A DNA stretch of 64,000 nucleotides. Source: a virus. Location: positions 1 to 64,000 of IMG/VR virus record IMGVR_UViG_3300038393_001444; one strand, given 5' to 3'. Of the stretch, positions 5,012-36,144 are shown piece by piece. Below the pieces are notes generated by a model. It had not been told where the DNA came from and did not search any database. It worked only from the letters and a program-made list of their open reading frames with translations. Made by a program: the position numbers and the translations under genes. Within the stretch, counting starts at the first letter, position 1, and each line of letters begins with the position of its first letter.

Positions 5012-8000
5012 ATGCTCGATCTCTCTGCTGGCCTGTCCGGGCCGATCCTGTTTCTGAAGGCCACGCAAAAGAAACAGGTGTTCATTCCCGCCTTTGTCCG
5101 CGCCGATGGCACTCCGGTGGCAGGGCACTACAAGTCGGTCCACGTTACCGACGATCACGATGATCACAAGGTAGCGCACGGGCAGGGCTCGCACAGCCAG
5201 AAGATCGCCCACGCGAAGCTGGCGCAGCACGATTGGTTCCACGCGCTGCCGACCGAGCACAAGGCCGCGATCGTGATGGCGCATGCCACGGATCATCAGG
5301 ACATGGATTCGGCCAATGCGCGCGCCTCCACGCTGAAGAAGAAGATCCTGGCCGGCGAAAAGCCGACGCCGTCCGAGTGGCGCGCCTGGGGCTATGTCGA
5401 GGCCGACAAGCGCCAGAAGCTCTACGATGAGATCACCGAAGCCGGGCAGGGCCCGTTCTTCCAATCCGCCATGGATGCGGACGCCGTGGCCAAGGGCGTC
5501 GAAGCCCGGAAAGAGCGCCTGGAGCATCAGCCCGCCGCGCCGGCCGACGTGAAGGCCGCCGAGCAGCCCAAGGAAGAGCCCAAGGCCGAGGAAAAGCAGC
5601 CCGAGCCGGCCGCAGCGCCCGAAGCGCCGAAGGCCGAGGACAAGCCCGCCGCGCCCGCGCAGGAGCCCGCCAAGGCCGCCGCCGGCGGCGAGCATGCGGA
5701 CTTCCTGGCCAAGCTGCATGCCGCCGCGCTGCCGCCCGAGAACGTCAATGCGTCCTCGTTCAACCTGAAGCTCAAGCTGATCCAGCAAGCCTTCGAAATA
5801 GGCGATGCCAAGACGCTGCTGGGCATGTCCTACGGCACGAACACCTACGGCAAGAAAGCTGCCAAGCTGGTGAATGAGGCCCTGGCCGTGCTCGGCCATG
5901 AGCACAAGGTCGAGCCGGGGCAGAAGGCTGGCGCGCATCCCGCGCTGGCCGGAGATCTGTCGCCGAAAGCCGAAAAGGAGCCGCCCAAGGATGAACCGAA
6001 GCCCGCAGAGCCGGCCCCAGCGCCGCAAGCAGCCGAGAGCGCGCAGCCCGAGAAAGCCGAAGCCGCTGCCGAGCCCGCCCCGGCTGCCGAACCCGTAGCC
6101 GAAGCGCCGGCCGCGAGCGAAACGGGAAATCCCGTTTTGGCCGATTCTCAAGCAAACGGCACGCTGGCCATGCCCGAGTTCGAAGAGGGCAAGGAAAAGG
6201 CCGGCGTCAAGGATTACTACGAGAAGGTCGCGCAAAAGATTATCGACCACGCCAGCGCCGGGAATGTCGCTGTGCTGGAGGATATGAAAGACGCGGGCCT
6301 GAAGCCGAACAAGAACGGCAAGGTCGGCAACACGTGGAAGGGAAAAACCGGCAACAGCAAGAAGCTGCTGGAGCTCTATGACGCCGCGCTGGCGCATGCG
6401 AAGGGGGAAGGCGCTGCCGCCGCCCCTGCCGCGCCCGCTGCCGTGGACGATGGCCCGAAGGAAGGCGATACCAAGACCGCCGCTGATGGCGGAACGCTGG
6501 TGCTGAAAGACGGCCACTGGATCAAGCAGGAAGAGCCGCAGGCGGCTGCCGCGCCGGGACCGCATGACGAACTGCTGGGGCAGGCCAAGGCCGCCGGCTT
6601 CGAAGTGAAGGTGAGCGGCATTCATGGAGTGGTGCTGGCCAATGGCAGCGGCATCATGAAAATGTATGCCAACAAGACGCAGGCCGAAAACGCCGTCCAG
6701 AACCTGAAGCAGAGCGGTTTCGATGCGCACGTGATCGGCCAGCATCCGTTCGCGGTCAAGATCACGGGCAAGGCGGCCGAGCCCGCGCCGGTGCTGGATG
6801 CGCCTGCTGCCGCGACCGACAAGGCCGCCAAGCATTACGTGCTGGATGCCGAGAATGCCGCCGCCAAAAAGGGATTGGTCGGCCAAGCCATGACCGCGCA
6901 CGTGTACGAGGCCGCGAAGCAGTGGCTCGATGCGCACCCGGGCAAGCTGGAAGAGCTCAATGCTGGGCTGGACGCGCTGGGTTATGCCAAGTTCCCCGAG
7001 CCGGCTGCCGCTGCCGCGCCAGCCGCGCCGGTCCCGCTGACCGACGCCGAGATCGGCGACAAGCCCAGCGGCGTGAACACTGATTTTTTCAACTCCGCGA
7101 AGAAGGCCGCGCTGGCCGGCGATCTGGCTGGGCTCAAAAAGCTGGCGCAGACCGCGCTGGACGAAAGCTATCCGAACACGGCGAACCATCTGCAGGGCAT
7201 GGCGGCCGCGCTCGAGGCCAAGCAGGGCGGCGCGCAGCCGGCCGGTGTCGATGAGAAAGCCGAGCAGGCCGCGATCACGATGGGCGAGAAGATGGCCGCT
7301 GACGGCGAGCTCGCGGATCTGGCCGAACTGATCCAGAACACGAAGGGCACGGTTTCCGATATCGCGCACAAGTACCTGCAGAAGCTGCTGGGCGATGCGA
7401 AAGACAAGCTGGCCGCCGAGGCTGCTGCCGCCGCCGGCAAAGAGCCGCCGAAGCCGACCGTCGCGCCGTCGCTGCAGAGCATTGTCGATGATGCGAAGTG
7501 GGCCTATGACAACGGCGAGCATCAAACGCTGTCCGATATCGCCGATTACGTGAAGGATCTCGATACCAGCGCCGACGCGCCGAAGATCCAGCAGTATGTC
7601 GCTGCGCTGCAGGGCCTGCAGAAGCCCGCGCGCCATGAGAAGCCGGCCGCGCAGCTCGCGCCGGAAGCCGCCCCAGCTGCGCCCGCCGCCAAGCCTTCGA
7701 TCACCCTGGCGGATCTGCCGTCGATCCCGGTGCTGAACCTGCAGAAGAACAAGGATCTGGCCGAGCACATGCAGCAGCTGGCGCTGGCCGGCGATCTGGC
7801 CGGGATTCAGGCGCTGCAGCAGACCGACAAGGTGAAGAACATCGGCAAGCTGTCGGGCTATTCGTACCAGCTGACGCAAGCGCTGATGCAGAAGGGCATC
7901 GTGACGCCGGTTCCTGGTGCTGACGCCGCACCCGCTGCCGATCAGGGCCCGAAGGATGGCGACACGAAGCAGGGCGCGAACGGCATGCTGGTGTTCAAGG

Positions 8001-10384
8001 ATGGTCGCTGGCACAAGATGGGCGACGATCCGAAGGTGCTCGCTGCCAAGGCCAATTCCATCGGCATGCCGAAGCTCACCGGCACGGCATCGATCAAGCT
8101 GACCAAGGTAATGAAGGGCCTGAAGGAAATCGCCAAGGAAGGCGGCGAGAAGGGCCTGAAGCTGGCGGTGAAGGAAATTGGCTCTTCGATACAAGTGTCG
8201 GCCGGCGGCTACACATTCAAATTCAACAAGGATCTGTCCGGATCGGGCCCGAATGGCAAGGCCGCAGGCCAGTACATCATGAACCTGATGGCCGCCATGG
8301 AAGGAACGAGCGGCCCGGTCGCGCCGAAGGTGGTGGGCGCATCGTCCTACGATCCGGCCGCCGCCGGCGAAGCGGCTGCCGCGCAGGAAGCCGCCGACAT
8401 GCAGGCCAAGTCTGCCGGCAAGGGCACGGCCGCGCCGATCGCCGGCAACAAGACCGAAAAGCTGGGCAAGGTGTCGGTGATGATCGCCGATGGCTGGGAG
8501 CAGACGGGCCCGCAGGGCGGCTCCAATCCTGGCGGCCGCTTCAAGGATGCGAAAGGGCAGGAATGGTATATCAAGCTGCCCAGCGATCCGGATACCGTCA
8601 AGAATGAAATGCTGGCGGCGAAGTTCTACGAAATGCTCGGCGCGAAGGTGCCGCAGCTGCGGCTGGTCAAGAAGGACGGCAAGCTGGGCATCGCGTCGAA
8701 GTGGGTCGATGGCATCAAGAAGGGCAGCGCCGAGCAGCTGGCGGCCGCCGATGGTGCGCACTCCGGGCATGTGTTCGATGCGTGGCTGGCCAATTGGGAC
8801 GTGGTCGGCCTGTCCAACGACAACCTGATGCTGGACAAGGATGGCAAGGCGCTGCGCGTCGACGTGGGCGGCTCGCTGGTCTACCGCGCCATGGGGAGCA
8901 AGAAGGGCGCGGCCTTCGGCAACGAAGTCACCGAGCTCGAAACGCTGCTGGATCACGGCAAGAACAGCAAGAGCGCCGCCGTGTTCGCCGGCATTTCCAA
9001 GGCATCGATCGACGCTGGCGCGAAGCAGCTGGCGAAGATGCACCCGAGCCAGATCGATACCCTGGTCGATATGTTCGGCCCGGGCAGCGACGCGGAAAAA
9101 GCCGAGCTCGCGCAGAAGCTCAAGGCGCGCCGCGAATTCATCCTGAAGAAGCTGGGCGTCGATGATCCCTGGAACAAGCCGGCCCCGGATCTCTCGAAGC
9201 TGCCGGTCAATCCGGACGATATGCCGCCGCCGATCAACTTCAGCGACTACATGGGCAGCGGCAAGGGCCTGTCATCGAAGGAGCACATCAACAAGCAGAA
9301 CACGATCGATGATGCGAACCTGATCGCCTTCGCCAAGCAGGGCAACCTGAAGGCGCTGCAGGACTACCATTACGATGCCTACGACAAGGAAACGGGCAAG
9401 TTCATCGGCAAGAAGCCGATCGGCGAGCATCCGAACAAGGATATCAAGAACCATTGGGCGTCCCTGTGCGATCTGCTGACGTCGGTGGCGCACCCGCCGG
9501 TTGAGGGCCTGGATCTGCCGCCGATCGGTGGCGGCTCGATCGAGGAAGTCGCCGAGCAGGCCGGCTACTTCAAGCCGGGCGAGAACATCAAGACGATCTC
9601 TGCCGAAAAAGTCGTGGGCTTCTGGATGAAGCTGGGCCACGTCGGCGCGGAAGCGGTGGCGGATCTGATGCCGCAGAAGCCGCGCTTCCTGAAGGGCGAT
9701 TTCGTGACGAAGGCGAAGCAGTGGTACAAGGCCGCCAGCGAAACCACGAAGGCCCTGGTCAACTCGATTCAGGATTCCGGCCATTACAACCGCTTCTGGA
9801 ACAACGGCGACAAGCACATCAGCATCAGCTCCGGCGGCCATAAGTACAGCGGCGGCGCGCAGACGCTGGCCAGCCAGATCTATCAGGAAGCCTTCGAATT
9901 CGATGAAGGTGAGACGATCGGCCGCTGGATGAACCTGTCGGAAGGCATGAAGCAGCAGCTGCTCAAGGAAGGCCCGGGGCTGGTATTCCAGAACGCCGAT
10001 TCCATGTGCGCATCGATCTTCAAGGATTGGGGCGACAACGCCAAGTTCGGTTCCGGCGCATTCCTCAACATCAAGTTCGCCAAGGGCGCGAAGGCGATGG
10101 CCTCGCTGGGCTCCGGCCGCTTCAAGGGCACGGGCCAAGACAAGGATGGCAACTATATCCATTCGGGCGGCGGCGGCGAAATGGAAGTCACGACGCTCAT
10201 GGGGCAGCGGTTCGTGGTGCTGGGCATCAAGCAGGGCAATGCCTCGAGCCCGAACGGCATCACCCTGGATCTGCTGGCGCTGCCGCCGCATGAAGGCTAC
10301 GTGGCCGAGCTCGGACAGCAGGCCGCGATGGGCAAATCGCTGACGGATGGCGTGTTATTATTCTTGAAAAGCAAGGGAAACTGA
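5012..10384 (+). CDS. 1790-aa polyvalent protein: repeats and linkers, HipA/PI3-4K-like kinase domain, C-terminal VIP2/Alt-like ADP-ribosyltransferase domain
   Basis: GGSNPGG..WYIK..NEMLA..DAWLANWD..DN..RVDVG kinase pattern; R...SMCAS...LNIKFAKGAKA...EMEV...GQRFVV ART pattern. Confidence 0.75.
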   Translation: MLDLSAGLSGPILFLKATQKKQVFIPAFVRADGTPVAGHYKSVHVTDDHDDHKVAHGQGSHSQKIAHAKLAQHDWFHALPTEHKAAIVMAHATDHQDMDSANARASTLKKKILAGEKPTPSEWRAWGYVEADKRQKLYDEITEAGQGPFFQSAMDADAVAKGVEARKERLEHQPAAPADVKAAEQPKEEPKAEEKQPEPAAAPEAPKAEDKPAAPAQEPAKAAAGGEHADFLAKLHAAALPPENVNASSFNLKLKLIQQAFEIGDAKTLLGMSYGTNTYGKKAAKLVNEALAVLGHEHKVEPGQKAGAHPALAGDLSPKAEKEPPKDEPKPAEPAPAPQAAESAQPEKAEAAAEPAPAAEPVAEAPAASETGNPVLADSQANGTLAMPEFEEGKEKAGVKDYYEKVAQKIIDHASAGNVAVLEDMKDAGLKPNKNGKVGNTWKGKTGNSKKLLELYDAALAHAKGEGAAAAPAAPAAVDDGPKEGDTKTAADGGTLVLKDGHWIKQEEPQAAAAPGPHDELLGQAKAAGFEVKVSGIHGVVLANGSGIMKMYANKTQAENAVQNLKQSGFDAHVIGQHPFAVKITGKAAEPAPVLDAPAAATDKAAKHYVLDAENAAAKKGLVGQAMTAHVYEAAKQWLDAHPGKLEELNAGLDALGYAKFPEPAAAAAPAAPVPLTDAEIGDKPSGVNTDFFNSAKKAALAGDLAGLKKLAQTALDESYPNTANHLQGMAAALEAKQGGAQPAGVDEKAEQAAITMGEKMAADGELADLAELIQNTKGTVSDIAHKYLQKLLGDAKDKLAAEAAAAAGKEPPKPTVAPSLQSIVDDAKWAYDNGEHQTLSDIADYVKDLDTSADAPKIQQYVAALQGLQKPARHEKPAAQLAPEAAPAAPAAKPSITLADLPSIPVLNLQKNKDLAEHMQQLALAGDLAGIQALQQTDKVKNIGKLSGYSYQLTQALMQKGIVTPVPGADAAPAADQGPKDGDTKQGANGMLVFKDGRWHKMGDDPKVLAAKANSIGMPKLTGTASIKLTKVMKGLKEIAKEGGEKGLKLAVKEIGSSIQVSAGGYTFKFNKDLSGSGPNGKAAGQYIMNLMAAMEGTSGPVAPKVVGASSYDPAAAGEAAAAQEAADMQAKSAGKGTAAPIAGNKTEKLGKVSVMIADGWEQTGPQGGSNPGGRFKDAKGQEWYIKLPSDPDTVKNEMLAAKFYEMLGAKVPQLRLVKKDGKLGIASKWVDGIKKGSAEQLAAADGAHSGHVFDAWLANWDVVGLSNDNLMLDKDGKALRVDVGGSLVYRAMGSKKGAAFGNEVTELETLLDHGKNSKSAAVFAGISKASIDAGAKQLAKMHPSQIDTLVDMFGPGSDAEKAELAQKLKARREFILKKLGVDDPWNKPAPDLSKLPVNPDDMPPPINFSDYMGSGKGLSSKEHINKQNTIDDANLIAFAKQGNLKALQDYHYDAYDKETGKFIGKKPIGEHPNKDIKNHWASLCDLLTSVAHPPVEGLDLPPIGGGSIEEVAEQAGYFKPGENIKTISAEKVVGFWMKLGHVGAEAVADLMPQKPRFLKGDFVTKAKQWYKAASETTKALVNSIQDSGHYNRFWNNGDKHISISSGGHKYSGGAQTLASQIYQEAFEFDEGETIGRWMNLSEGMKQQLLKEGPGLVFQNADSMCASIFKDWGDNAKFGSGAFLNIKFAKGAKAMASLGSGRFKGTGQDKDGNYIHSGGGGEMEVTTLMGQRFVVLGIKQGNASSPNGITLDLLALPPHEGYVAELGQQAAMGKSLTDGVLLFLKSKGN

Positions 10385-10386
10385 TC

Positions 10387-10929: not shown

Positions 10930-11928
10930 GTGCTGCTACTCTTCAAATCCCACGTCAAGGGCTATACGCGCGCCGATGGCACGTATGTGCCGCCGCATGA
11001 AACCAAGGTAGTCAAGAAAGCGCCCGCGCCGCAGAAGGCGCTGTTCGATCACAAGGCCCCGCTGCCGGCGGAAGCCTATGCCGGCAAGGATCTGCCTGCC
11101 GCCGCCGCGCCGAAGAGCGTGGCATCCGCGCACATGGAGCAGATCAAGAGCGCGCTGCAGCAGCCCAAGGCGAAGAAGTGGGTGAACTCCCTGCACTCCG
11201 GCAAGCAATTCGGCAAGGACAGCGCCGGCGAGAGCAAGGGCGCGTATCAGGGCGGCCTGTTCGGTGGCCACAAGGGCTACGAAAAGGAAAAGCCGCACTA
11301 CCCGAACGCGATCACGCATCCGCAGGCCGGCGACAAGGGCGAGCCGATCCAGATCAACGAGCCGAGCAAGCCATCCCTGGCCGAAACCTGGGAAGATCCG
11401 GACGCCACGGCCACGTTCGTGCCGGGCTCGGCGGTGCCGCGCGAGCTCAACGGCGTGGCCATGCAGACGTGGGCCGATGCGCCGACCACGGATATCGAGT
11501 GGAACAATGTGCCCGGGCAGGACATGGATCTGGAAGAGCCGGAGTTCATCCTGCCCAAGGGCAAGAAAGCCGCCGCCGGCGTGATCATCGAAGAGCCGGA
11601 CGGCCGCGTGTGGCTGCTGCGCCCGACCAATGGCTTCGGCGGCTACGACGCCACGTTCCCGAAGGGCCGCATCGATCCCGGCATCGGCATGCAGGCCAGC
11701 GCCATCAAGGAAGCTTTCGAGGAAACCGGGCTGCAGGTGGAGATCACCGGGTTCGTGTGCGATATCGAGCGCAGCGTCACGATGGCCCGCTTCTACCGCG
11801 CGCGCCGCGTCGGCGGAACGCCGAAGGACATGGGCTGGGAAGCGCAGGCGGTGCAGCTGGTGCCCAAGGATGAACTGCATCAGGTGCTCAACACGGAAGT
11901 GGACCGGCATATCGCCAAGCAGGCATGA
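10930..11928 (+). CDS. Nudix hydrolase with long N-terminal extension
   Basis: FPKGRIDPGIGMQASAIKEAFEETGL Nudix box variant; AAAGVII beta-1 strand. Confidence 0.85.
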   Translation: MLLLFKSHVKGYTRADGTYVPPHETKVVKKAPAPQKALFDHKAPLPAEAYAGKDLPAAAAPKSVASAHMEQIKSALQQPKAKKWVNSLHSGKQFGKDSAGESKGAYQGGLFGGHKGYEKEKPHYPNAITHPQAGDKGEPIQINEPSKPSLAETWEDPDATATFVPGSAVPRELNGVAMQTWADAPTTDIEWNNVPGQDMDLEEPEFILPKGKKAAAGVIIEEPDGRVWLLRPTNGFGGYDATFPKGRIDPGIGMQASAIKEAFEETGLQVEITGFVCDIERSVTMARFYRARRVGGTPKDMGWEAQAVQLVPKDELHQVLNTEVDRHIAKQA

Positions 11929-11930
11929 AT

Positions 11931-12472: not shown

Positions 12473-12844
12473 ATGGCGACCGTGCAAACCAAGGATCTGT
12501 CGGGGCCGGCGCTGAATTGGGCGGCGGCGAAGGCGGAAGGCCACGCCGATCTCGTGTTCCATCCGAGCACGGGGTCGGTGACTAGAGCGATGCCGAATGG
12601 AATGGTGCTGGTTTTCAGCTATGCCGATAGCTGGATGCATGCCGGCCCGCTCATCGAGCGCGAGCGCATCGATGTGATCAGCGATCCGAACGGTACGGCC
12701 GGCTGGATGGGGCGCAACTATCTGCAGGGGCATGAGGTCCGCTTTTTCGGCCCGACGCCGCTGGTGGCCGCGATGCGCTGCTACGTGGCCTGCAAGCTGG
12801 GCCAGCAAGTCGAAGTGCCCGATGAACTGATGAAGGGGGAATGA
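12473..12844 (+). CDS. NinX-like/DUF2591 family protein
   Basis: DLSGPALNWAAAKAEG...W..AGPLIERERI...GPTPLVAAMRCYV. Confidence 0.75.
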   Translation: MATVQTKDLSGPALNWAAAKAEGHADLVFHPSTGSVTRAMPNGMVLVFSYADSWMHAGPLIERERIDVISDPNGTAGWMGRNYLQGHEVRFFGPTPLVAAMRCYVACKLGQQVEVPDELMKGE

Positions 12845-13095
12845 TGCTGTGGAATAACCGCAAAGAGCGCGCCGTGACCGTGACGCACAAGCCCACGGGC
12901 GTCGCCGCAACGGTGGACTGCGATCGCTCGCAGCATCGCAATCGCATCAAGGCCATGGCGCTGCTGCGCGCCCGGCTGTATGCGCAGCGCGAGCTCGGCG
13001 CGCGGCCAGTGATGGGCGACCATCCGGTGCGCGTCTACCGGCTGCCGGATGACGTGGGCCCGTATCCGAACGATCTGATGGAGTATGCGCGATGA
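12841..13095 (+). CDS. class I peptide release factor domain fragment lacking GGQ
   Basis: AVTVTHKPTGV...DRSQHRNRIKAMALLRARLY resembles the RF1/RF2 segment AVRITHxPTGI...ERSQHxNxxxAxxxLxARL. Confidence 0.75.
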   Translation: MMLWNNRKERAVTVTHKPTGVAATVDCDRSQHRNRIKAMALLRARLYAQRELGARPVMGDHPVRVYRLPDDVGPYPNDLMEYAR

Positions 13096-25452: not shown

Positions 25453-25784
25453 TCCCGCTGTTCATCAAGTCGATTCAGCCGCCCAAGGCCAAGCCCAAGG
25501 ATGCGCCGAAGCCGAAGGAAACCAGCCCGGCCGAGCTCGGGCACTTCGCCGATCTGCTGGGCCTGCTGTCGAACCATCGCTCCGGCGGCGAGTTCGGCCC
25601 GCATAACGTCGAAGCCGGGCACCACGTCGCCTTCCGCGCCGGCGCGTTCTCCGGCTCCGGCGAAGTCACCGCCACCGGCCGCGATGGGCTGGTCGTGCGC
25701 GACGGCACCGGCCGCGAGCATCGCGTCCACTGGCGCGAGTGCACCGGCCACTTCGCGCCGGAAAAGAAGGCGAAGAAGAAGTGA
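25449..25784 (+). CDS. small head-associated protein, SH3/KOW-like C-terminal part
   Basis: MIPLFIKS N-terminus; G.V..TG.DG..V.D..G.EH.V.W. Confidence 0.65.
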   Translation: MIPLFIKSIQPPKAKPKDAPKPKETSPAELGHFADLLGLLSNHRSGGEFGPHNVEAGHHVAFRAGAFSGSGEVTATGRDGLVVRDGTGREHRVHWRECTGHFAPEKKAKKK

Positions 25785-26962
25785 GTTCCCTGCTGCTGGA
25801 CGTCGGCGCGCTGCCGTGCGGTTGCGTCGACCATGCGCTCGAGCACTTTTCGAAAGCGCTATCGGGCGAGGATGGCGAAAGCCCGGATATTTGGGCCAAG
25901 CATGAATCGCCGTTCATCCAGTCGCTGATCGAACTGTTCACCAGCCGGGGCCTGCTGCGCCTGGAAAAGGTGAAGCAGGAGCTCGAAGCCTGGGCGGCCG
26001 GCAAGCGCCACAAGGCCGGCGGCGCGCCGGCGGCGCGGCCGAAGATCCCGGGCCTGCAGTGGACCGACGAAGAAGCGATGCTGGTGAAGGTCTATCTGGA
26101 AAACCTGCCGCCGGAGCAGTTCACCGCCTCGGATTGGGCCCTGGTCGTGGATTATCTGGCGCAGCGCTACTTCCCCAGCAACGTGATCCAGTCCGAAGCC
26201 GAGTGGCTGGCCATGCGCTCGTCCATGATGGGCAAGGTCGCCGCGCACTATGCGGCGGTGGCCGTCACGGTGGCGCAGGCCGATGCGATCCTGGCGGCGC
26301 TGCCGCTGACGGTGGCCGATACGGTCCAGACGTTCGGCTACAAGGGCGCGGCGGTGCAGATCCTCGAGTACGCGCGCGAGCGCTGCTGTGATCAGGTCGT
26401 GCAGCTGTCCGATCAAATGCGGCATCGCATGAAGAAGGTGATCCTCGACTACGAGCAGCAGAAGATCGAAGGCGCGAATCCGCCGGCGGCAGCGCTGGCC
26501 ACGCGCCTGTTCGATGAATTCTCGGCGCTCAACCGCGATTGGCGGCGCATCGCCGTGACCGAAGCCGGCGAGAACGCGAATCAGGGCCTGATCGCCTCGC
26601 TGCCGCTGGGCACCCGGGTGAAGCGCCTCGAGCAGTATCGCGGGGCCTGCCCGTTCTGCAAGAAGATCAACGGCCGGGTGCTGACCGTGGTCGATCCGGC
26701 CAAGCGCAACAAGGACGGCGAGCTCGAAGTCTGGCTGGGCAAGAACAACCTGGGCCGCTCCGGCAGTCCACGGAAGCGCGTCGGCGATGCCTTAGTCGAG
26801 CGCGAGCCGCATGAAAAATGGTGGATTCCGGCCGGTACCGTGCATCCGCACTGTCGCGGCCAGTGGCACGTGCTCACGCCGCCGCCGCCCGGCTCCGATC
26901 CCGGGTTCGCCGCGTGGCTGGACAAGCACGTGCACAAATACAAGGTGGGGCCGCAAGCGTGA
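25781..26962 (+). CDS. MuF/SPP1 gp7-like head morphogenesis protein
   Basis: RRIAVTE...CPFC...HPHCRG; follows portal. Confidence 0.8.
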   Translation: MSSLLLDVGALPCGCVDHALEHFSKALSGEDGESPDIWAKHESPFIQSLIELFTSRGLLRLEKVKQELEAWAAGKRHKAGGAPAARPKIPGLQWTDEEAMLVKVYLENLPPEQFTASDWALVVDYLAQRYFPSNVIQSEAEWLAMRSSMMGKVAAHYAAVAVTVAQADAILAALPLTVADTVQTFGYKGAAVQILEYARERCCDQVVQLSDQMRHRMKKVILDYEQQKIEGANPPAAALATRLFDEFSALNRDWRRIAVTEAGENANQGLIASLPLGTRVKRLEQYRGACPFCKKINGRVLTVVDPAKRNKDGELEVWLGKNNLGRSGSPRKRVGDALVEREPHEKWWIPAGTVHPHCRGQWHVLTPPPPGSDPGFAAWLDKHVHKYKVGPQA

Positions 26963-27456
26963 GCGAAAAACTAACACCGAACGCCGAGCAGCTGGCGCGC
27001 AAGCATCCGATCGCCTACGTGCAGAAGTGGCATGGCCTGGAGCTCGCCATCGAAAACCCGGTCGGCTCGGTGCGCTCGGGTAAGAAGCCGGACGGCACCG
27101 CATGGCATACGACGATGAAGCATGCCTATGGCGAGATCTCCGGCAGCACCGGCGTCGACGGCGATCCGGTCGACGTGTTCCTGGGCCCGGATCTCGAGAG
27201 CGCGGAATTCGTGTACGTGGTGCACCAGCGCCGCGTCGATGACTGGAAAAACTACGACGAGGACAAGGCCATGCTGGGCTTTCCCAGCGAAGCCGCCGCG
27301 CGCATCGCGTTCCTGCGCAATTACGACGATCCGCGCTTCCTGGGCCCGATCACGAAGCTGCCGGTCGCGGAATTCATCCGCAAGGTGCGCGCCACGAAAA
27401 CGCACCCGGCGATGATCAAGTCGCTGCTGCTGTTCTTGCGAGAGAAAGTCAACTAA
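26959..27456 (+). CDS. inorganic pyrophosphatase-like domain protein
   Basis: IENPVGSVR..YG...GVDGDPVDVFLG...DEDKAMLGF. Confidence 0.8.
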   Translation: MSEKLTPNAEQLARKHPIAYVQKWHGLELAIENPVGSVRSGKKPDGTAWHTTMKHAYGEISGSTGVDGDPVDVFLGPDLESAEFVYVVHQRRVDDWKNYDEDKAMLGFPSEAAARIAFLRNYDDPRFLGPITKLPVAEFIRKVRATKTHPAMIKSLLLFLREKVN

Positions 27457-27854: not shown

Positions 27855-30800
27855 ATGAAAAAGAAGCCGCTGATCCTGTTCATGAAGGCCGCCGATATCC
27901 CTGCTGGAAGCAAATGGATAACGGTGCATCCGAATGGCCCCGACACGAAGGGCCAGCCGGTGCTGGTGCAGCCGGTCGAGCCCGGTTCGCACGTGTTGCA
28001 CGTGATCGGCGGTGCGGGCGGCAAGCTGAATTACATGCGCATCACTTCCACGAAGAGCCCGGAAGATTACGCAAAGGAGTCCGGCGAGCGCGCGAAAGCC
28101 AAGCGCGAGGCCGCCAAGGCGCAGAAGGCTGCCGACAAGGCCGCCGGCGTCCACGAAGCCAAGCAGCAGGCCAAGGCCGAAGTCTCCACGCAACAGCGCG
28201 CCGCCGAGCGCGATTTCATCGATACGGTCGCCAAGGCGATGGGCTGGGACGATTCCGCCCTGGCCTTCGATGAGGCCGCGCATGCGGGCGTGTCCGATGC
28301 CGCGCGCGCCACGGCGCTGCGCCAGCACCACGCCGAGCTCCTGAAGCGCGCCAAGGAAGCGGTGGGCCTGCAGCGCCAGCGCCTGCTGATCGATGCCGAT
28401 GCCCGCAAACAGGCATTCACGGGCGAGACGCCGCTGCATACCGATGATGCGACCAAGCTGGGCGTGTCCGATATCGATCCGGTGCGCCCGAACACCGGCA
28501 AAGGCTTCGATCCGGATTACGCCGGCCGCGCCAAGGACAAGGGCCTCACACCCGAAGCGGCCGAAGCCGAAGCCGCCGAAGTGCAGGGCAAGCAGGCCGC
28601 CGGGGCGAAGGACAAGAGCGTGGCGCAGAAGGTCGCCGAAGAGCTCGCCAAGGTCAACGCCGACAAGCCGGATCTGCCGGCGAAGATCGTGGAAGTCCAG
28701 CAGGCGGTGGATCTGCTGGCTGCGCAGAAGAAGCTGGCGGCGATCCAGCAGGCCGCGCGCGCGGCGAACCAGCAGATCGATGCCAGCCCGGAGCCGCATG
28801 GCTACGTGCTGAAGGTGTCCGACGTCGATCCGGCGGCAGTCGAAAAGGAAGTGCTGGACAAGCTGAACACGGCGAAAACGTCGGCCTTCCTGAAGGCGGC
28901 CGCCGAGACCGGCAAGGAAACGCCGCTCGAGCACCACATTGCCGCCGGGTCGTTCAATTCACTCAACGCGCTGGCGCTGGCCGCCGGCGGCGCGCCGCTC
29001 ATGGACCGCTCGGTGGTCGACGTGCTCGGCGCGGAAGCCTCGGCGCAGATCCTGGCGCGCCGGCTGCGAAAGGATCTCGGGGATGATAAGGCGGATGAAA
29101 TTGCTGACGGCATGGGCGGCTTCCATCTGCAGCACTATCAGGGCCTGCAGGAATCTGTGCTTGCGGACGTGGCAAAGCTGCACGAAACAGCCGCGCAGCT
29201 GGAAATCGATGCTGCCCACGGTCCCGCTGATCTGCTGGTTAAGGCGGAAGCCAATCGCCGCCGCATGGCCGCGCTGGATGAGGCGAACCATCTGCTCGGC
29301 CACGCGCTGGGCGAAATGGAAGCGAACGCGGCGATGGTGTATGCCCTGGGCGAGCCGTCGCGCGATGCGGTGCAGGTATCGCTGGGCAAAACGCCGCTGG
29401 TGTCGGCGATCCAGCAGCTGCGCGCGATCGGCCTGGAAAAGGGCGATTATTCACTGCAACAGGAAGCCGGCAATGCGTTTTTGACCATCCATGCGTCGGG
29501 CATGGATCGGCTCGCGGGCCCGGTGGATGCCGCCGGCCTGGAGCAGGTGCAGCGCAATCTCGGCATCATGAAGGGCAGCGAGGACGAGGATGGCTGGCTG
29601 CCGGAAGGCTTCGACGGCCGCGCCGATCTGGCGCTCAATCTCGAGCCGGGCGTCGCGCCGTCGCTGGCGCAGCCGTTCGATGGCCAAGCCGAAGATCTGC
29701 ACGGCGCGCTGCGCGACTACATCGGCTCGCGCATGGCCGATGGCGATGCGCCGGCCGATATCGTGTCGGATCTGCAGTCGGCCGCGTTCTTCGCCAAAGT
29801 CGGCGCGGATCGGGCGGACGATTACCGCGCCGCCCTGGATGCGGTCGCGCCGAACAAGGGGTCGGATGGCAAGCAAATGGTGCGCGCCGAGCAGCTGGCC
29901 CCGCTGTTCGACAAGTATGCGGACGAGTTCGTGGCGTCGAAGTGGGGCGGCAAGCGCTCCACGCTGAACAAGCAGGGCTTCGAGGCCGATGATCACGCGC
30001 AGGAAGCGCTGCACCGCGCGCTGGCCGCCGAGCCCGCCGGTGTTGCCGCCTACAAGCCGATCGGCGAACTGCACGATGGCGACACGAAGGCGCTGCGCGA
30101 CTACTTCTACAAGCACATCGCCAAGGAATCGCCGGAGCTCGCGGCCATGCGCGCCGAGTATGACGATCACCTGAAGGCCGAGCCGGAAAAAACGGTCGAG
30201 GATCTGTTCGGCGAGATCGCCCCGAATCCGGACTGGCAAGCCTGGGATTCCGCGCGCACGGCGCTGGCCGGCAAGATCAAGCAGAGCGGCCTGAATTGGC
30301 AGGATTACACGAAAACGATGCGCGGGCATCAGAAGGCGTATGAAACGCTGCAGGATCTGATCCGCTCGAAAGTCTCGTCCGAATTCGCCCGGCATTACAA
30401 CACCCTGAAGCCCGATGCGCCGCTGAAGCTGGGCAAGACGGTCGTGCGCGGCAACCTGAATCACCTGGATGCGGTCGATCCCGCCGCCCGGGAAGCGCGC
30501 GTAAAGGCCGAGCGCCAGCTGATCGACACGCTGCGCGAACGGCATGCCGGCAAGTACACGTCCGGCTCGGTGGCCGGCAAGCTGGAAGCTGCGAAGGAAG
30601 CCAAGGCAGCCTTCGAGCAGTCGCAAATGGGCTTCTTCTCGAGCGAGGAAGCGCCGGCGGCGCTGTCCGGCGACGATGGCGATATAGGAAATCCTATATC
30701 GCTCGGCGCGGATGAGCGCCACACGATCGGCCAAGCCGCCGAACACAAGCTGGCCGCGATGATGGGCGTGGTCGGCAAGAATTTCGTGCCGGGGCAGCCG

Positions 30801-32387
30801 ACGAAGCTGTTTGCGGCCTCGATGAGCGGCAAGGATGGCATCAAGCGGCAGCGCGCCATCAAGATGCTGCTGGCGAACAAGCGCATGATCGGCGGCCTGG
30901 GCGTGGGCTCGGGCAAGACCGGCATCGGCCTGGGCGCGTTCGCGCACCTGAAATCCACCGGCAAGGCGAAAAAGGGCCTGTTCGTGGTCCCGTCGATCGT
31001 CCAAGGCCAGTTCGGCGGCGAAGCGCTGCGCTTTCTGAAGGCCGGGCAATTCAACTGGCACTGCCAGCCGGGCGCGTCGCACGAAGAGCGGCTGGCCAGC
31101 TACAAGGATGCCGGCACCGACTTCCACGTGGTCACGCATCAGGCGTTCCGCGATGACGTGCTGAAGCTGGCCGCCAAGCACGAGGGCAGCGATCCGGAAA
31201 AGATCGCCGCCGCGCTCGATGCGATGGATGCCGAAGGCCGGAAACACTACATCAAGGACATCCTCGACAAGGAAGGCATCGGCTTCGATTACGTGATGGC
31301 CGACGAGGGCCATGGCCTGCTGAACCGCGAAGGCAAGGAAAACAGCCGGCTGTCGAACGTGGTGCAGGGCGTCACCGATAGCGCCGAATACTACCTGCAT
31401 GCGTCGGGCGATCCGGTCAAGAACGATGCTTCCGAAGCCTTCGATCTGCTGGCGAAAATGGATGGCAAGCGCTACCACGACCGCGCCGCGTTCATGCGCC
31501 GCTATGGCGGCGATTCCCAGCTGGCCAAGGACGGGCTGCGCCGCGAGCTCGCGCGCTATGCCTATCTGGCGAAGATCACGCCGGACGTCAATGTCACGAA
31601 AACCGAGCGGCATATCGAACTGCACCCGGAGCAGCATGCCGCCCTGGATGCGATCGACCGCGCCGCCGCCAAGGTGCGCATCGCGCGCATGAACGGCGGC
31701 GTGGATCTGCCGGCGCTGCAGGAGCTCTCGCCGGAATCCTTCCACGGTGCGCCCGAAGAGCAGCATGCCGAGATCGCGCAGGCGCTGACGAAGGCGATCG
31801 GCGTGATCAAGAACGCGGCGATCAACCGGGTGATCAACGCGCACCCGAAGAGCGCGAAGCTGGACGATCTGGCGCAGACGGCCGGAGAACGCAAGGGCAA
31901 GCCCGGCGTGGTGTTCGCCCGCTCGCTCGCTGCCGTCGAACAGGCCAAGGCGCGCCTGGAAGCCGCCGGCCATCGCGTGGCGGTGATTACCGGCGCGGAT
32001 AGCGCGAAAGACAAGGGCGCGAAGATCCAGCAATTCAATCCGGACGATGGCGATCGGAAGGCCGATATCGTGATCTGCTCGGACGCCGGCGCGGTCGGCG
32101 CGAACCTGCAATCCGGCTCCTGGCTGTATCAAATGGACACGCCGGACACGGCGATGGTGCATGAGCAGCGCAACGGCCGCATCGCGCGCGTGGGCCAGAA
32201 AAACGACGTGGAATTGATCGATGCGATCGCCAACCATCCGCAGGAGCGGCGCGCGCGCGAGCGGCTGGCGAAGAAGGGAGAACTGCGCCGCGTGGTCACC
32301 GATCCGCTCGATGGCATCGATGACACGGGGCTGGCCGCCTTCCTGAGCGCACAAAACCACGCGCAACAGCAATCGATGCTGTTCTGA
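27855..32387 (+). CDS. large SNF2/SF2 helicase-like ATPase (DarB-like position, no methyltransferase motif seen)
   Basis: GVGSGKT, VVPS, MADEGH, ASGDP, GANLQ, QRNGRIARVGQ. Confidence 0.85.
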   Translation: MKKKPLILFMKAADIPAGSKWITVHPNGPDTKGQPVLVQPVEPGSHVLHVIGGAGGKLNYMRITSTKSPEDYAKESGERAKAKREAAKAQKAADKAAGVHEAKQQAKAEVSTQQRAAERDFIDTVAKAMGWDDSALAFDEAAHAGVSDAARATALRQHHAELLKRAKEAVGLQRQRLLIDADARKQAFTGETPLHTDDATKLGVSDIDPVRPNTGKGFDPDYAGRAKDKGLTPEAAEAEAAEVQGKQAAGAKDKSVAQKVAEELAKVNADKPDLPAKIVEVQQAVDLLAAQKKLAAIQQAARAANQQIDASPEPHGYVLKVSDVDPAAVEKEVLDKLNTAKTSAFLKAAAETGKETPLEHHIAAGSFNSLNALALAAGGAPLMDRSVVDVLGAEASAQILARRLRKDLGDDKADEIADGMGGFHLQHYQGLQESVLADVAKLHETAAQLEIDAAHGPADLLVKAEANRRRMAALDEANHLLGHALGEMEANAAMVYALGEPSRDAVQVSLGKTPLVSAIQQLRAIGLEKGDYSLQQEAGNAFLTIHASGMDRLAGPVDAAGLEQVQRNLGIMKGSEDEDGWLPEGFDGRADLALNLEPGVAPSLAQPFDGQAEDLHGALRDYIGSRMADGDAPADIVSDLQSAAFFAKVGADRADDYRAALDAVAPNKGSDGKQMVRAEQLAPLFDKYADEFVASKWGGKRSTLNKQGFEADDHAQEALHRALAAEPAGVAAYKPIGELHDGDTKALRDYFYKHIAKESPELAAMRAEYDDHLKAEPEKTVEDLFGEIAPNPDWQAWDSARTALAGKIKQSGLNWQDYTKTMRGHQKAYETLQDLIRSKVSSEFARHYNTLKPDAPLKLGKTVVRGNLNHLDAVDPAAREARVKAERQLIDTLRERHAGKYTSGSVAGKLEAAKEAKAAFEQSQMGFFSSEEAPAALSGDDGDIGNPISLGADERHTIGQAAEHKLAAMMGVVGKNFVPGQPTKLFAASMSGKDGIKRQRAIKMLLANKRMIGGLGVGSGKTGIGLGAFAHLKSTGKAKKGLFVVPSIVQGQFGGEALRFLKAGQFNWHCQPGASHEERLASYKDAGTDFHVVTHQAFRDDVLKLAAKHEGSDPEKIAAALDAMDAEGRKHYIKDILDKEGIGFDYVMADEGHGLLNREGKENSRLSNVVQGVTDSAEYYLHASGDPVKNDASEAFDLLAKMDGKRYHDRAAFMRRYGGDSQLAKDGLRRELARYAYLAKITPDVNVTKTERHIELHPEQHAALDAIDRAAAKVRIARMNGGVDLPALQELSPESFHGAPEEQHAEIAQALTKAIGVIKNAAINRVINAHPKSAKLDDLAQTAGERKGKPGVVFARSLAAVEQAKARLEAAGHRVAVITGADSAKDKGAKIQQFNPDDGDRKADIVICSDAGAVGANLQSGSWLYQMDTPDTAMVHEQRNGRIARVGQKNDVELIDAIANHPQERRARERLAKKGELRRVVTDPLDGIDDTGLAAFLSAQNHAQQQSMLF

Positions 32388-32392
32388 AAAAG

Positions 32393-32407: not shown

Positions 32408-32414
32408 TCATGCA

Positions 32415-32660
32415 ATGAAATCCTCGATCGATCACGTGCGCGCGCTGGCGGCGAAAAACGCCGCGCTCATGGCGCAAGCGAAATCCACGCATGCCGGGCT
32501 GCTCGATGCCGCCGATGCCGAAGATGCGCGCCTGGGCCAAGCCATTGCCGCGACCGATCGTGCCGCCGTGCTGGCCGATCCCGGGCTGGCTGCCGTCTAC
32601 CGCAAGCAGGTGCGCGACCGCGCCTCCATCCAGCGCCTCGCTGCCGAACGCCATGCATGA
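32415..32660 (+). CDS. small helical hypothetical protein
   Basis: Follows late motif. Confidence 0.65.
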   Translation: MKSSIDHVRALAAKNAALMAQAKSTHAGLLDAADAEDARLGQAIAATDRAAVLADPGLAAVYRKQVRDRASIQRLAAERHA

Positions 32661-32853
32661 GATCCAAACCCGCCAGCTGCATTTCGCGGCCTACCTGAAA
32701 GCGCACGGCGCGGAATTCGTCGGTTGCGTCGATCGCGTCTTTACCTTCCGCTCGCCCAAGCCGCTCGATGCGTGGCGCGTCGAACACGCCAATTCCGATG
32801 CGCGGCTGGTGGATCTGAACCTGATCGAACTGCGCCGTTTCCTCAAGGCATAG
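32653..32853 (+). CDS. small hypothetical protein (T.QLHFAAYLK..G...F.F, DUF5659-like pattern)
   Basis: ATG 32653 overlapping the upstream gene end. Confidence 0.6.
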   Translation: MHEIQTRQLHFAAYLKAHGAEFVGCVDRVFTFRSPKPLDAWRVEHANSDARLVDLNLIELRRFLKA

Positions 32854-32864
32854 GCGAAAAAGAG

Positions 32865-32879
32865 TCGTGACGGAAAGAT
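32865..32879 (+). promoter_or_regulatory. putative late promoter TCGTGACGGAAAGAT (ATG 8 nt downstream)
   Basis: Consensus match. Confidence 0.75.
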
Positions 32880-32887
32880 CCGGTCCC

Positions 32888-33811
32888 ATGGAACACGCTT
32901 TCGAAAACCTGCCGTCGCACATTTGCTTCAGCGATCTGCTGAAGGCAACGCCCCGCATTGAGGGCGGCGAGCGCGTCATTTATATCGAGGCGTCCAGCCA
33001 AGCGAAGGATCTGCAGGGCGAAGTGATCCTGGCGAAGGCCCTGGCCGAATCGAAGGATTACTACCTGCAGTTCGGCAACCTGGATATCGATCACTACACG
33101 CAAATCGGCAAGCCGAATCCCGCCAAAGGTGCGGCCGGCATTCCCGATTACCTGTTCTACGAGATCGGCCGTCCGACCGAAGTGCGCATTGAGCGCAACC
33201 GCACGTTCGTGAAGGGCCTGATCAAGTCCGGCTTCGGCCCGGCTGCCGAAAAGGCCAACCTGTTCTGGAGCTCGCTGACCGAAGTCAATCCGCCGGAACG
33301 CTGGTATCCGAGCGTCGGCGGCGCGGTCATGGCCAAGGCCGAAGCCACGGATGAATCCACGGGCGCGACCTACCCGGTCATCACGAAGGTGCGCTGGACG
33401 AACATCGGCTTCTCGAAAACGCCGGTCAATCCGGATCTCGCCGAAGTCTCCACGGTGCCGATCGGCGCGCTGGCCAAGTGCTGGACCGCGCACGGCCTGG
33501 ATCTGCGCAAGAGCCTGTCCGCTGGCTACAACACCGATTCCGCAACGATGACCGGCGGCGATGCGCTGCGCGCCGGCAACGGCTCCGGCAGGAAGCAGGG
33601 CGATGGCCTGCGCCTGTACGTGAGCGACTACTTCAGGGATTTCCGCGATCCGTTCGCCAAGCTGGTGCACGACGGCCAAGCCGGTCGTTCGGTCGCCGAC
33701 ATGGTGAAAACCGCCACCACGCATTTCGAGCTCTCGCATTCCGATGCGGCGCGCTACGTCGAAATGTTCCTTGACGATTTGAAACGCAGCACAAAAAGGG
33801 GAAGCCAATGA
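32888..33811 (+). CDS. prohead protease
   Basis: EAS...DLQGEVI...NLDIDH...IGRP...PSVGG...PVN; precedes scaffold and capsid genes. Confidence 0.8.
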   Translation: MEHAFENLPSHICFSDLLKATPRIEGGERVIYIEASSQAKDLQGEVILAKALAESKDYYLQFGNLDIDHYTQIGKPNPAKGAAGIPDYLFYEIGRPTEVRIERNRTFVKGLIKSGFGPAAEKANLFWSSLTEVNPPERWYPSVGGAVMAKAEATDESTGATYPVITKVRWTNIGFSKTPVNPDLAEVSTVPIGALAKCWTAHGLDLRKSLSAGYNTDSATMTGGDALRAGNGSGRKQGDGLRLYVSDYFRDFRDPFAKLVHDGQAGRSVADMVKTATTHFELSHSDAARYVEMFLDDLKRSTKRGSQ

Positions 33812-34656
33812 GCTTTGAAGCACTCACCAATCGTCTGAATGAGATCGGCGATCTCAACAAAGCGCTCGCGGCCGATGCCGATGGTGCTGCAGACGACAAG
33901 AAAATCGCGGCCGCTGCCGCCGATGGCGCAGCCGCTGGCGGCGCGGACGGCGAAGGCGCTGGCGAAGGCAAGGAAGGCGCGACCGCTGGCGATGGCTCGG
34001 CCGGCAATCAGGGCGCGGATGGCGTGGATAACGCCGCCGGCGCAAACGATGAAGGCGGCGGCAATCCGGAAGATGAAGACGAGGACGAGGAAGGTGCAGG
34101 CAACAAGGGTGAAAAGCCCCTGGCCAAGTCCTTCTCGCTGCAGCTGGAAGACGGCACCGAAGTGGAAGCCTTCGATGGCACCGCGCTGATCAAGTCCTTC
34201 ACCGAGCAGCTGGCTGCCGCCGGCGAGCGCCTGCAGACCGTGGAGCTCCACGCGCAGAGCCATAGCGAGCAAGTCATGAAGGCGCTCGGCACTGCCGCCG
34301 ATCTGCTGGCCGGTCAAGCGCATGCGATCAAGACCGCCAACGCCACCATCGCCGCGCAGGGCAAGGCCCTGGAAGAAACCGGCGCGCTGGTCAAGTCGCT
34401 GCAGGAGCGCGTGGAAACCCTGGCCAATGCCGGCCGTGGCCGCGCATCGACCGTGTCGATGAACGAAAAGCCGGCCGCCGATGGCGCGCTGGTCAAGTCC
34501 ATGGGCGAGCCCATGAGCAAGCAAGAAATTCTGGCCAAGTCGCTCGCTGCGATGCAGACCGGAAAGATCTCGGGATTAGAAGCATCCGGTATCGAAACCC
34601 GCGTGAATCTCGGATTGCCTGTCGATCCGGTGCTTCTCGCAAAAATCTCTCAATAA
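33808..34656 (+). CDS. scaffold-like head assembly protein
   Basis: Acidic/G-A-rich region plus coiled coil, many L-x-K(S/A) sites; between protease and capsid. Confidence 0.75.
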   Translation: MSFEALTNRLNEIGDLNKALAADADGAADDKKIAAAAADGAAAGGADGEGAGEGKEGATAGDGSAGNQGADGVDNAAGANDEGGGNPEDEDEDEEGAGNKGEKPLAKSFSLQLEDGTEVEAFDGTALIKSFTEQLAAAGERLQTVELHAQSHSEQVMKALGTAADLLAGQAHAIKTANATIAAQGKALEETGALVKSLQERVETLANAGRGRASTVSMNEKPAADGALVKSMGEPMSKQEILAKSLAAMQTGKISGLEASGIETRVNLGLPVDPVLLAKISQ

Positions 34657-34674
34657 CTACGGGGGTAGTGAAAT

Positions 34675-36144
34675 ATGTTGGATCAACTGATAAATGGTGG
34701 CCAGTCCGGCGCTGCTGCCTCCGGCCTGAGCCAAGCCGGCGACCTGGGCATGGCCGAAGTCGAAGCGCTGAACAAGTCGCTGTCGGCGGGCTACGAGTCC
34801 GATATGAACGGCATGGCTGGCGGCTCCGCGCTGCGCATCCAGTCGCTCGACACCAACCTGCAAGCCACTGTGCAGGACAACAAGCACTTCGCGCTATTCA
34901 ACGCGCTGCCGAAGCCTCGCGCGACGGCCGTGCTCGATGAATGGACCGAGCAGCATTCGATCGGCGGCTTCTTCGGCGGCACGTTCAACGATCAGGATGG
35001 CATCGCCATGGAAACCCAGGGCGACTACACCCGCATGGTCGGTCGCGTGAAGTACATGAGCACCTATCGCAAAGTGCCGATCGTGCTGCAGCAGCAGAAC
35101 AATCTGGCCGACGTGATCACGCTCGAGACCACCAACGGCACCAAGCAGCTGCTCACCGATATCGAAGTCGGCCTGTTCGAAGGCCGCGATGACGTCACGC
35201 CGAAAGCATTCGCCGGCATCCGCCAGCAGCTGGAGTCGCTGAACTCGACCGACAACATCATCGATATGGCTGGCCAAGCGCTGTCCAACATCGATCCGAT
35301 CGCCAAAGCCGCGCAGAACATCTTCGGCTTCGGCAACTTCGGCCGCGCCACCGATATCTATGTGCCGCCGTCGGTCCAGACCGACCTGAACATGGATCTC
35401 GACCCGGCGTTCCGCGTCATGCTCAACGCCAATGCGTCCAGCACGGTGCGCGGCACCCACGTCGCCGGCGTCCAGACCTCCTACGGTCAGATCGCCACGC
35501 AAACCGACGTGTTCATCCGCGATGAAAAGCTGAAGATGCCGTTCGAATCGCGCAACGCGCTGCATGCCGCCGTCGCCGCCGCGAACTCCGCATTCAAGCC
35601 GCAGTCCGTCGCTGCTGTCGCTGGCGCGGGCGGTGCGGATTCCATGTGGACTTCGGCCAATGCCGGCAATTACTACTGGTCGGTCACCGGCATCAACCAG
35701 AACGGCGAATCGCAATCGGTGCAAACCGCGCAAACCGCAGTCGCGTCTGGCCAGCAAGTCACGCTGACCATCACCGGCTCGGCAGGCGGCACCGAAACCG
35801 GCTACGTCATCTATCGCTCGCGCCTGAACGGCACGAACGCGCTGACCGATCTGCGCGAAATGATCCGCGTTCCGAAGTCGGGTGCGACCACCACCTACAT
35901 CGACAAGAACCGCGAAATCCCGGGCTCGACCTGTGCTTTCGTGCTGAACATGACCGCATCCGATCACGCGATCGCATGGCGTCAGTTCATGCCGATGATG
36001 AAGATCGCCATGGCAGCGACGAACAGCCCGATCATCCCGTGGCTGCAAATGATCTGCGGCTATCTGCGCATCACCAAGCGCAACCAGCACTGCATGATCA
36101 AGAACATCGTCACCAACAGCCAAGCGTGGCGTCCGTTCAACTAA
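34675..36144 (+). CDS. major capsid protein
   Basis: N-terminal KSL.AGY...ALR.QSLD as in SPO1/Twort/A511-type capsid proteins; strong codon bias; terminator follows. Confidence 0.9.
   Translation: MLDQLINGGQSGAAASGLSQAGDLGMAEVEALNKSLSAGYESDMNGMAGGSALRIQSLDTNLQATVQDNKHFALFNALPKPRATAVLDEWTEQHSIGGFFGGTFNDQDGIAMETQGDYTRMVGRVKYMSTYRKVPIVLQQQNNLADVITLETTNGTKQLLTDIEVGLFEGRDDVTPKAFAGIRQQLESLNSTDNIIDMAGQALSNIDPIAKAAQNIFGFGNFGRATDIYVPPSVQTDLNMDLDPAFRVMLNANASSTVRGTHVAGVQTSYGQIATQTDVFIRDEKLKMPFESRNALHAAVAAANSAFKPQSVAAVAGAGGADSMWTSANAGNYYWSVTGINQNGESQSVQTAQTAVASGQQVTLTITGSAGGTETGYVIYRSRLNGTNALTDLREMIRVPKSGATTTYIDKNREIPGSTCAFVLNMTASDHAIAWRQFMPMMKIAMAATNSPIIPWLQMICGYLRITKRNQHCMIKNIVTNSQAWRPFN

Follow-up and report, generated by a model that had tools for sequence, protein, structure and literature searches.

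Encapsulin cargo-loading peptides are short and disordered, occur at either terminus and dock cargo inside an HK97-fold shell. The capsid-targeting sequence (CTS) of bacteriophage T4 is thought to dock on the protease or on the scaffold core of the prohead. It is carried by injected internal proteins and is cleaved by the prohead protease (as cited in PMC9024508). In phage P1, an N-terminal signal of 30 residues suffices to load the giant methylase-helicase DarB, as well as a reporter, into the myophage head, and the authors found no consensus among the N-termini of the Dar proteins (PMC9024508). A survey of polyvalent proteins predicted the packaging of effectors of the inorganic pyrophosphatase (InPase) type and invokes a zincin-like autoprocessing (Iyer et al. 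2017, PMC5512222). Text searches of that survey returned no description of a hydrophobic-Lys-Ser/Ala cassette, a YTRKDG hairpin or processing by a prohead protease. The DNA considered here, the first 64,000 nucleotides (64 kb, “the window”) of IMG/VR virus record IMGVR_UViG_3300038393_001444, belongs to a 94,344-bp phage genome of 64% G+C and encodes five proteins with a similar terminal motif, a run of hydrophobic residues next to a Lys-Ser or Lys-Ala pair (the tag). The favoured reading, to which a probability of roughly 55% is assigned, is that these five proteins are late-made head cargo which would be co-assembled into the procapsid with the run as docking element, shortened by the prohead protease and delivered together with the DNA.

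The five genes and their tags are as follows, with a slash at each bond predicted to be cut.

5012..10384, plus strand: 1790-aa candidate cargo protein, N-terminal tag PILFLK/A (nt 5042-5062) and C-terminal cassette MGK/SLTDGVLLFLK/SKGN ahead of the stop codon (nt 10328-10381)
10930..11928, plus strand: Nudix hydrolase, N-terminal tag MLLLFK/S followed by the hairpin HVKGYTRADGTYVPPH (nt 10930-10998)
25449..25784, plus strand: 111-aa protein (p111), tag MIPLFIK/S (nt 25449-25472), then a Lys/Pro-rich linker
26959..27456, plus strand: polyvalent-type inorganic pyrophosphatase (InPase, PF18823), C-terminal cassette PAMIK/SLLLFLREKVN ahead of the stop codon (nt 27406-27453)
27855..32387, plus strand: 1510-aa SNF2/helicase, candidate cargo, N-terminal tag PLILFMK/A (nt 27867-27890) before a WITVHPNG beta domain

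The terminal strings quoted for these proteins in the preliminary description of the same DNA are all present at these genes. Besides those of Nudix and p111, they are GPILFLKA at the N-terminus and MGKSLTDGVLLFLKSKGN at the C-terminus of the 1790-aa protein, PAMIKSLLLFLREKVN at the C-terminus of InPase and MKKKPLILFMKA at the N-terminus of the SNF2 protein. The InPase tail has the Lys-Ser pair ahead of the hydrophobic run, which terminates in REK instead of K[SA]. The GTG start of the Nudix gene is the earliest start codon in its open reading frame (ORF), and the start of p111 overlaps the portal stop (ATGA). The true start of InPase lies at about 26959; judged from homologues, both InPase and the MuF-like minor head protein (MuF) start later than their longest ORFs imply, which leaves the tags unaffected. 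In a proteome of 124 proteins (28,558 aa, home-made gene calls), there are four matches to the strict pattern [ILVM]{2}F[ILVM]?K[SA], each at most 20 aa from a terminus, and a looser pattern gives five terminal and two internal sites. Codon usage varies among the tags, and the conservation is therefore at the protein level.

The payload had been described as kinase/ART, Nudix, pyrophosphatase and SNF2 enzymes. The Nudix, InPase (E 4e-39) and helicase domains are solidly identified by Pfam, while the kinase and ART parts stand at the level of leads: the 1790-aa protein has zero matches in Pfam and PHROGs, and the ART-like C-terminal part and HipA/PI3K-like middle seen with the ESM Atlas are leads only.

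The motif is short, and rare A/T-rich codons just ahead of the next start codon encode the C-terminal tag of the 1790-aa protein, as might be expected if the motif arose by chance or reflected a signal in the nucleotides (a translation start, or the ribosome-binding site of the following gene) and not in the protein. Such an origin is hardly credible. The codons differ among the tags, on which ground a nucleotide-level signal was rejected; the motif is retained at the protein level across phages that are 40-60% identical, at C-termini and at internal joints as well; and chance was rejected because it is contradicted by the enrichment statistics and the comparative data given below. A signal peptide was also rejected, because of the shortness of the run and because giant cytoplasmic enzymes are concerned. 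The codons of the 1790-aa C-terminal tag (10328-10386; TTA TTA TTC TTG AAA AGC AAG GGA AAC, in a genome with a GC3 of 83%) lie directly upstream of the ATG of the next gene and may have a second role as its ribosome-binding region.

Head and tail genes of the genome are similar to those of Bordetella phage PHB04, Pseudomonas phages Dolphis and Jeremy and Morganella phage Mecenats66. In PHB04 the orthologues of SNF2 (MKPILFLKAS) and InPase (C-terminal PAMIKALVLFLAARPAN) are tagged, and the tag is also found on enzymes which the present phage lacks, i.e. a RelA/SpoT-like protein (VIVFLKAQVAGYTRQDGTVV), a 2097-aa methylase-helicase and a 251-aa protein. Mecenats66 carries it on ORF50, Nudix and helicase, and Dolphis is without the cargo block between MuF and protease. 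The SNF2 family comprises 612 homologues at E <= 1e-5, and among the N-termini listed nearly all read h-h-h-[FL]-h-K-[AS] (h, hydrophobic) immediately ahead of IPxGARWITVHPNG, with Lys11 conserved in at least 90% (39 homologues). Orthologues of p111 in L006, L007 and L009 retain the tag. A scan of relatives for the motif near protein termini, as suggested in the preliminary description, was made on 80 IMG/VR loci collected via the SNF2 family (“the loci”). Within the first 25 residues, the pattern hhhK[SAG] reaches 13 times its density in protein interiors (p 6e-53, a value that overstates independence as the loci are mutually related), and a reversed control pattern has no N-terminal bias. 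Tagged proteins in the loci include InPase, a Zeta-toxin-like kinase, ART-PolyVal, DUF3560, DUF5710, DUF6900 and DarB-like giants with N6-methylase and SNF2 domains; on contig L083 three different proteins share identical first 30 residues. No terminal tag is found on early or tail proteins of this genome or of PHB04, proteins on which an equally frequent motif had been named as an argument against a capsid signal. An extra regex match in PHB04 was discounted as the membrane segment of a lysis-cassette protein. Judged from these comparisons, the cassette is not due to chance and is kept on orthologues and on unrelated enzymes across phages.

The same Lys-Ser/Ala site occurs in the head-module proteins of the window.

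23674..25452, plus strand: portal protein, conserved C-terminal site FGK/SFGLPPVF (nt 25399-25410), about 14 residues from the end
25781..26962, plus strand: MuF-like minor head protein, N-terminal hydrophobic run (SSLLLD) and conserved FSK/A at residues 23-26
32888..33811, plus strand: prohead protease (phrog_1028), conserved N-terminal site DLLK/ATP (nt 32936-32947) and four more h-x-K-[SA] sites
33808..34656, plus strand: scaffold protein, seven h-x-K-[SA] sites, the densest of the genome
34675..36144, plus strand: major capsid protein of SPO1/phi812 type, predicted maturation site EALNK34/S35LSAGY (nt 34768-34779)

The capsid protein is homologous to those of SPO1 (9vel_C, E 1.5e-32) and phi812 (5lii_P, E 6.5e-13), and its LNK34/S35LSAGY aligns with VVK24/S25FQTGY of phi812. 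A shorter deposited phi812 capsid chain, 9row_B, starts at exactly this serine (S25), which probably represents the mature N-terminus. As no usable passage on the processing of the A511 or phi812 capsid protein was found in the literature, Lys-Ser maturation rests on these PDB chain sequences. The site, as [ED]-L-x-K/[AS]-[LM]-x-[AS]-G-Y, is retained in the capsid proteins of the loci examined. The protease has phrog_1028 as its sole match, with none in Pfam or among PDB sequences. The hydrophobic-x-K(S/A) sites listed earlier for capsid, scaffold, protease, portal and MuF are all present, numbering seven in the scaffold, five each in protease and portal and one in MuF besides capsid LNK34/S35, and the three most enriched proteins of the genome are scaffold (p 6e-6), protease (p 8e-4) and portal (p 0.013). 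Per 1000 aa in the loci, scaffold proteins contain 32 such sites, proteases 17.4, portals 5.7, capsid proteins 4.4 and cargo 4.3, compared to 2.5 in all other proteins, 0.5 in the head-tail adaptor and 0 in the tail tube. Scaffold and protease are thus 12-fold and 7-fold enriched, and the neck proteins are depleted. Such densities would be expected if the head protease cuts the motif and digests the scaffold and itself, and if structural proteins of the head interior avoid it. Conserved single sites are found in the loci near the N-terminus of the protease (hhK/A-TP..EGG), near residue 25 of MuF and some 12 residues ahead of the portal C-terminus (K/[AS]-FGLPVF). A predicted cut rule of hydrophobic-x-Lys followed by Ser or Ala is well supported by the capsid alignment and the site densities.

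By its distribution in the alignments, the tag consists of two separable parts, a hydrophobic run that is specific to the terminus and a Lys-Ser/Ala site that is also kept at internal joints. Where the SNF2 module is N-terminal, at least three hydrophobic residues precede the Lys in 83 of 90 proteins; where other domains precede it, K[SAG] is kept in 29 of 29 and the three or more hydrophobic residues in only four. In split SNF2 N-termini the run occupies the extreme N-terminus, and h-x-K-[AS] stands apart from it, 4-10 residues further on (VLFLKPSDLLKAS, IVFLPAQALAKAA, ILFLNLSARLAKA). The residue that follows an N-terminal hydrophobic run is Lys in 22% of cases, compared to 4% inside proteins, and this Lys is followed by Ala or Ser in 76% versus 39%. 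At the C-termini of proteins in the loci, the mirrored pattern of K[SAG] and then a run is 2.7-fold enriched in the last 25 residues, and 15 of the 25 proteins concerned are also N-terminally tagged. The InPase tails read PAMIK/[AS]-hhhF-(K[AS]) with three to seven further residues before the stop, among proteins that are 55-60% identical. The proposed use at either terminus is borne out, in that the motif occurs at both ends with the run always outside the Lys-Ser/Ala bond. As the order is run-Lys-Ser/Ala at the N-terminus and Lys-Ser/Ala-run at the C-terminus, cutting would remove the greasy peptide at both ends. In AlphaFold2 models built from family alignments, SNF2 residues 1-11 and InPase residues 156-165 have a pLDDT below 50 and no secondary structure, and the adjoining domains fold with high confidence. 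Such predicted disorder of N- and C-terminal tags agrees better with conserved linear motifs than with structural strands.

A disordered and hydrophobic tag could also remain on the protein uncleaved, either as a strand that binds MuF, portal or another partner or as a degron by which unpackaged toxic enzymes are cleared via host proteases, and some of the cargo is potentially toxic (Zeta-toxin-like, ART, RelA/SpoT-like). This explanation is improbable, as it accounts neither for the strict Lys and then Ser/Ala, which is so much more frequent after N-terminal runs than inside proteins, nor for the identity with the capsid, scaffold and protease sites, nor for the mirrored layout.

Many tags run on into a hairpin, H-[IV]-x-x-Y-T-R-K-D-G-T-x-V-x-x-H, as in the Nudix hydrolase of this phage, and a hairpin-like FVRADGTPVAGH follows the N-terminal tag of the 1790-aa protein. 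The hairpin is absent from p111, from N-terminal InPase tags and from a 643-aa protein, which carry the run and K[AS] alone. A profile of tag and hairpin (45 positions) retrieved 1387 cluster representatives at E <= 1e-3 among 1.84 billion. In the best 150 matches the cassette is found at protein N-termini and also in two to five internal copies in larger proteins presumed to be polyvalent, often as K[AS]-hhhh-K[AST]-hairpin. In an InPase-SNF2 fusion both cassettes are retained back to back, as expected if genes fuse and split at the Lys joint. Cluster look-ups of the cassette-bearing proteins returned no names, a protein with three cassettes (P0123) had zero tblastn matches to cultured phages, and full-text searches found no relevant literature on the strings YTRKDG, YTRSDG or WITVHPNG and no published description of the tag. 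A separate, Ser-rich class of proteins (P0133, P0136, P0152, P0162, P0166, P0173 and others) consists of tandem V-x-V-x-G-Y-T-R-S-D-G-T-Y-V-x-x-Y-T-R-S-x-P repeats; these share the hairpin of the cassette, without the Lys site.

These internal copies raise the possibility that the hydrophobic-K-[S/A] cassette serves processing only, as a head-protease joint in polyvalent cargo which single-domain genes have inherited via fission. Loading would then be brought about by something else, e.g. the hairpin after cleavage, an association with MuF or portal, or the small conserved proteins beside the cargo genes. The K[SAG] at all 29 internal SNF2 joints, the full cassette two to five times within polyvalent proteins and the two cassettes of the InPase-SNF2 fusion agree with this, and the InPase tails may be read as junction cassettes ended early by a stop codon. 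Against it stand the long runs in 92% of terminal modules versus 14%, the run kept at the extreme N-terminus in split forms, the run and K[SA] on cargo that is devoid of the hairpin (p111, InPase N-tags and the 643-aa protein), and a C-terminal run conserved among InPases that are just 55-60% identical. On balance it is regarded as rather unlikely. The preliminary view of a capsid-targeting signal cleaved at K-S/A is upheld in part: the motif is conserved, portable, linked to termini, borne by genes of the head module and the same site as in capsid, scaffold, protease and portal. As Lys-Ser/Ala also occurs at internal joints, however, the pair would be an independent processing site, and the long run alone is specific to termini.

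The setting of the tagged genes resembles that of late head genes. A late-promoter-like motif precedes their units:

4973..4987, plus strand: late-promoter-like motif TCGTGAYNNNANNNT, ahead of the 1790-aa gene
10885, 23634, 27834 and 32865: further copies of the motif, ahead of the Nudix gene, the portal unit, the SNF2 gene and the protease gene, respectively

The motif has 17 copies compared to 0.49 expected. It lies upstream of the units that hold all five tagged genes, in agreement with their earlier placement in late-motif transcription units, and also upstream of portal, protease and tail genes. The genes for the 1790-aa protein, a 165-aa protein and the Nudix hydrolase are followed by a leftward early block and then by the head genes, in the order portal, 111-aa protein, MuF, InPase, 96-aa protein and 1510-aa SNF2/helicase; downstream of SNF2 come two small proteins, the prohead protease, the scaffold and the major capsid protein. 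The order recurring in the loci is portal, (tagged small protein), MuF, tagged InPase, tagged giant, tagged SNF2, small protein, protease, scaffold and capsid.

According to the favoured reading, the tagged enzymes would be made late and enter the procapsid, where the prohead protease would trim them at K-[S/A], and the trimmed enzymes would leave the capsid with the DNA. The run of 3-5 hydrophobic residues at the chain end, often with a Phe, would be the docking element, possibly as the P side or P' side of a high-affinity substrate bound by the protease or the scaffold. Virion presence, cleavage and docking by the run are thus predictions from sequence. A wider and more tentative proposal, held to be somewhat doubtful, is that of a bidirectional address: a hydrophobic peptide of 4-6 residues outside Lys-Ser/Ala, at either end, would dock a protein in SPO1-type procapsids of phages of Gram-negative bacteria, perhaps by binding to the prohead protease as a high-affinity substrate, and would then be clipped off, the same cassette being used as fusion/fission joint of polyvalent proteins.

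Several points weigh against late-made, docked and trimmed cargo. For this phage, PHB04 and Mecenats66, the literature searched yielded no proteomics, N-terminal sequencing or packaging experiments. Cassettes with full hydrophobic runs are also found at internal joints of many polyvalent proteins, so that the run is not strictly a terminal address and may be only the P2-P5 side of a strong cut site. The conserved hairpin behind many tags would not be removed by the cut, and loading or delivery could in truth depend on it. The C-terminal tails, although conserved, may be what gene fission left behind at a junction, and the propeptide would measure as little as six residues. The kinship of the sampled loci and the home-made gene calls are further drawbacks.

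Some additional features of these genes and their surroundings were recorded. A protein of about 80-90 aa (32415-32660; “u85” type, e.g. L027:14610-14858) is conserved between the SNF2 and protease genes in most loci, and a 108-aa protein is conserved downstream of DarB-like giants; either could be a loading chaperone. The SNF2 protein of this phage ends in QSMLF-COOH (nt 32370-32384). Among the SNF2 homologues P0001-P0120, 90 of 120 end in Phe, mostly as Q-x-[S/G/A]-[L/M]-F-COOH, which resembles the bacterial beta sliding-clamp binding motif QL[S/D]LF, and from this likeness the cargo helicase may dock on the host clamp. DarB-like giants of the relatives have K[AS]-(E)Q-x-x-L-F-D right behind the tag, e.g. 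KAQLALFD in PHB04. The SNF2 homologues of L010, L017 and L029 are about 1660-1685 aa long, with an N-terminal extension of 170-200 aa and without a terminal tag; they are surrounded by numerous small leftward genes, and no head protease is encoded within 10 kb. This is a different, non-head setting for the same SNF2 enzyme. The portal-adjacent 493-aa protein of PHB04 (L002:16906-18387) differs from p111 (25449-25784), whose tag is N-terminal, in having its parts in swapped order, with a domain like the C-terminal half of p111 first, an internal cassette K/SLGADGRVLLFFK/A at about residue 110 and then a further part of 380 aa. An 84-aa protein (12841-13095) has a match limited to the GGQ region of peptide-chain release factors (RF-1 domain, E 1e-10), and its gene adjoins a NinX-like gene upstream of the terminase.

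If the favoured reading is true, the proteins injected by a large group of ~90-kb myophages, most of them uncultured, could be listed by a simple rule on the sequence; among them would be Nudix, pyrophosphatase, SNF2, ART, kinase, alarmone synthetase-like, DarB-like and Zeta-toxin-like enzymes. The loading and cutting-apart of polyvalent proteins would also be explained, and a very short portable tag would become available for putting foreign proteins into phage heads. The cultured relatives PHB04 and Mecenats66 allow direct testing.

Compared to the described systems, the likeness to the T4 CTS (internal proteins IPI-III and Alt; removed by gp21) lies in a short N-terminal peptide on unrelated late proteins which ends in the cut motif of the head protease, and in a scaffold studded with the same motif as the peptide, the cut rule here being derived from sequence. 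The two phages are of unrelated lineages. T4 gp21 cuts at Leu/Ile-x-Glu, whereas Lys-Ser/Ala would be cut here in an SPO1/HK97-like system, and the tag is shorter, strongly hydrophobic and also found at C-termini and at internal joints of multi-enzyme proteins. With the P1 Dar system is shared a tagged DarB-like methylase-helicase (N6_Mtase and SNF2), found in PHB04 and in many loci; none was identified in the window by Pfam or general gene identification, and the Dar partners DarA, Hdf, Ulx and Ddr were not sought. The P1 capsid protein differs in being cut after Glu120. The repertoire of InPase PF18823, ART-PolyVal, Nudix, SNF2 and RelA/SpoT-like enzymes, as well as the MuF/portal neighbourhood, is shared with the polyvalent proteins of the survey (PMC5512222). 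Most effectors of the present phage are, in contrast, separate genes: each of Nudix, InPase and p111 has a single domain, the 1790-aa protein may join kinase-like and ART-like parts, on leads only, and fused relatives exist. Encapsulin peptides are, by general description, alike in being short, disordered, placed at either end and associated with an HK97-fold shell, but are uncleaved and of another consensus. The functional precedents are the T4 CTS and the N-terminal signal of P1 DarB, and what is new here is the split single-enzyme form, the terminus-specific run with its mirrored C-terminal use, the disorder predictions and the existence of cultured relatives for testing.

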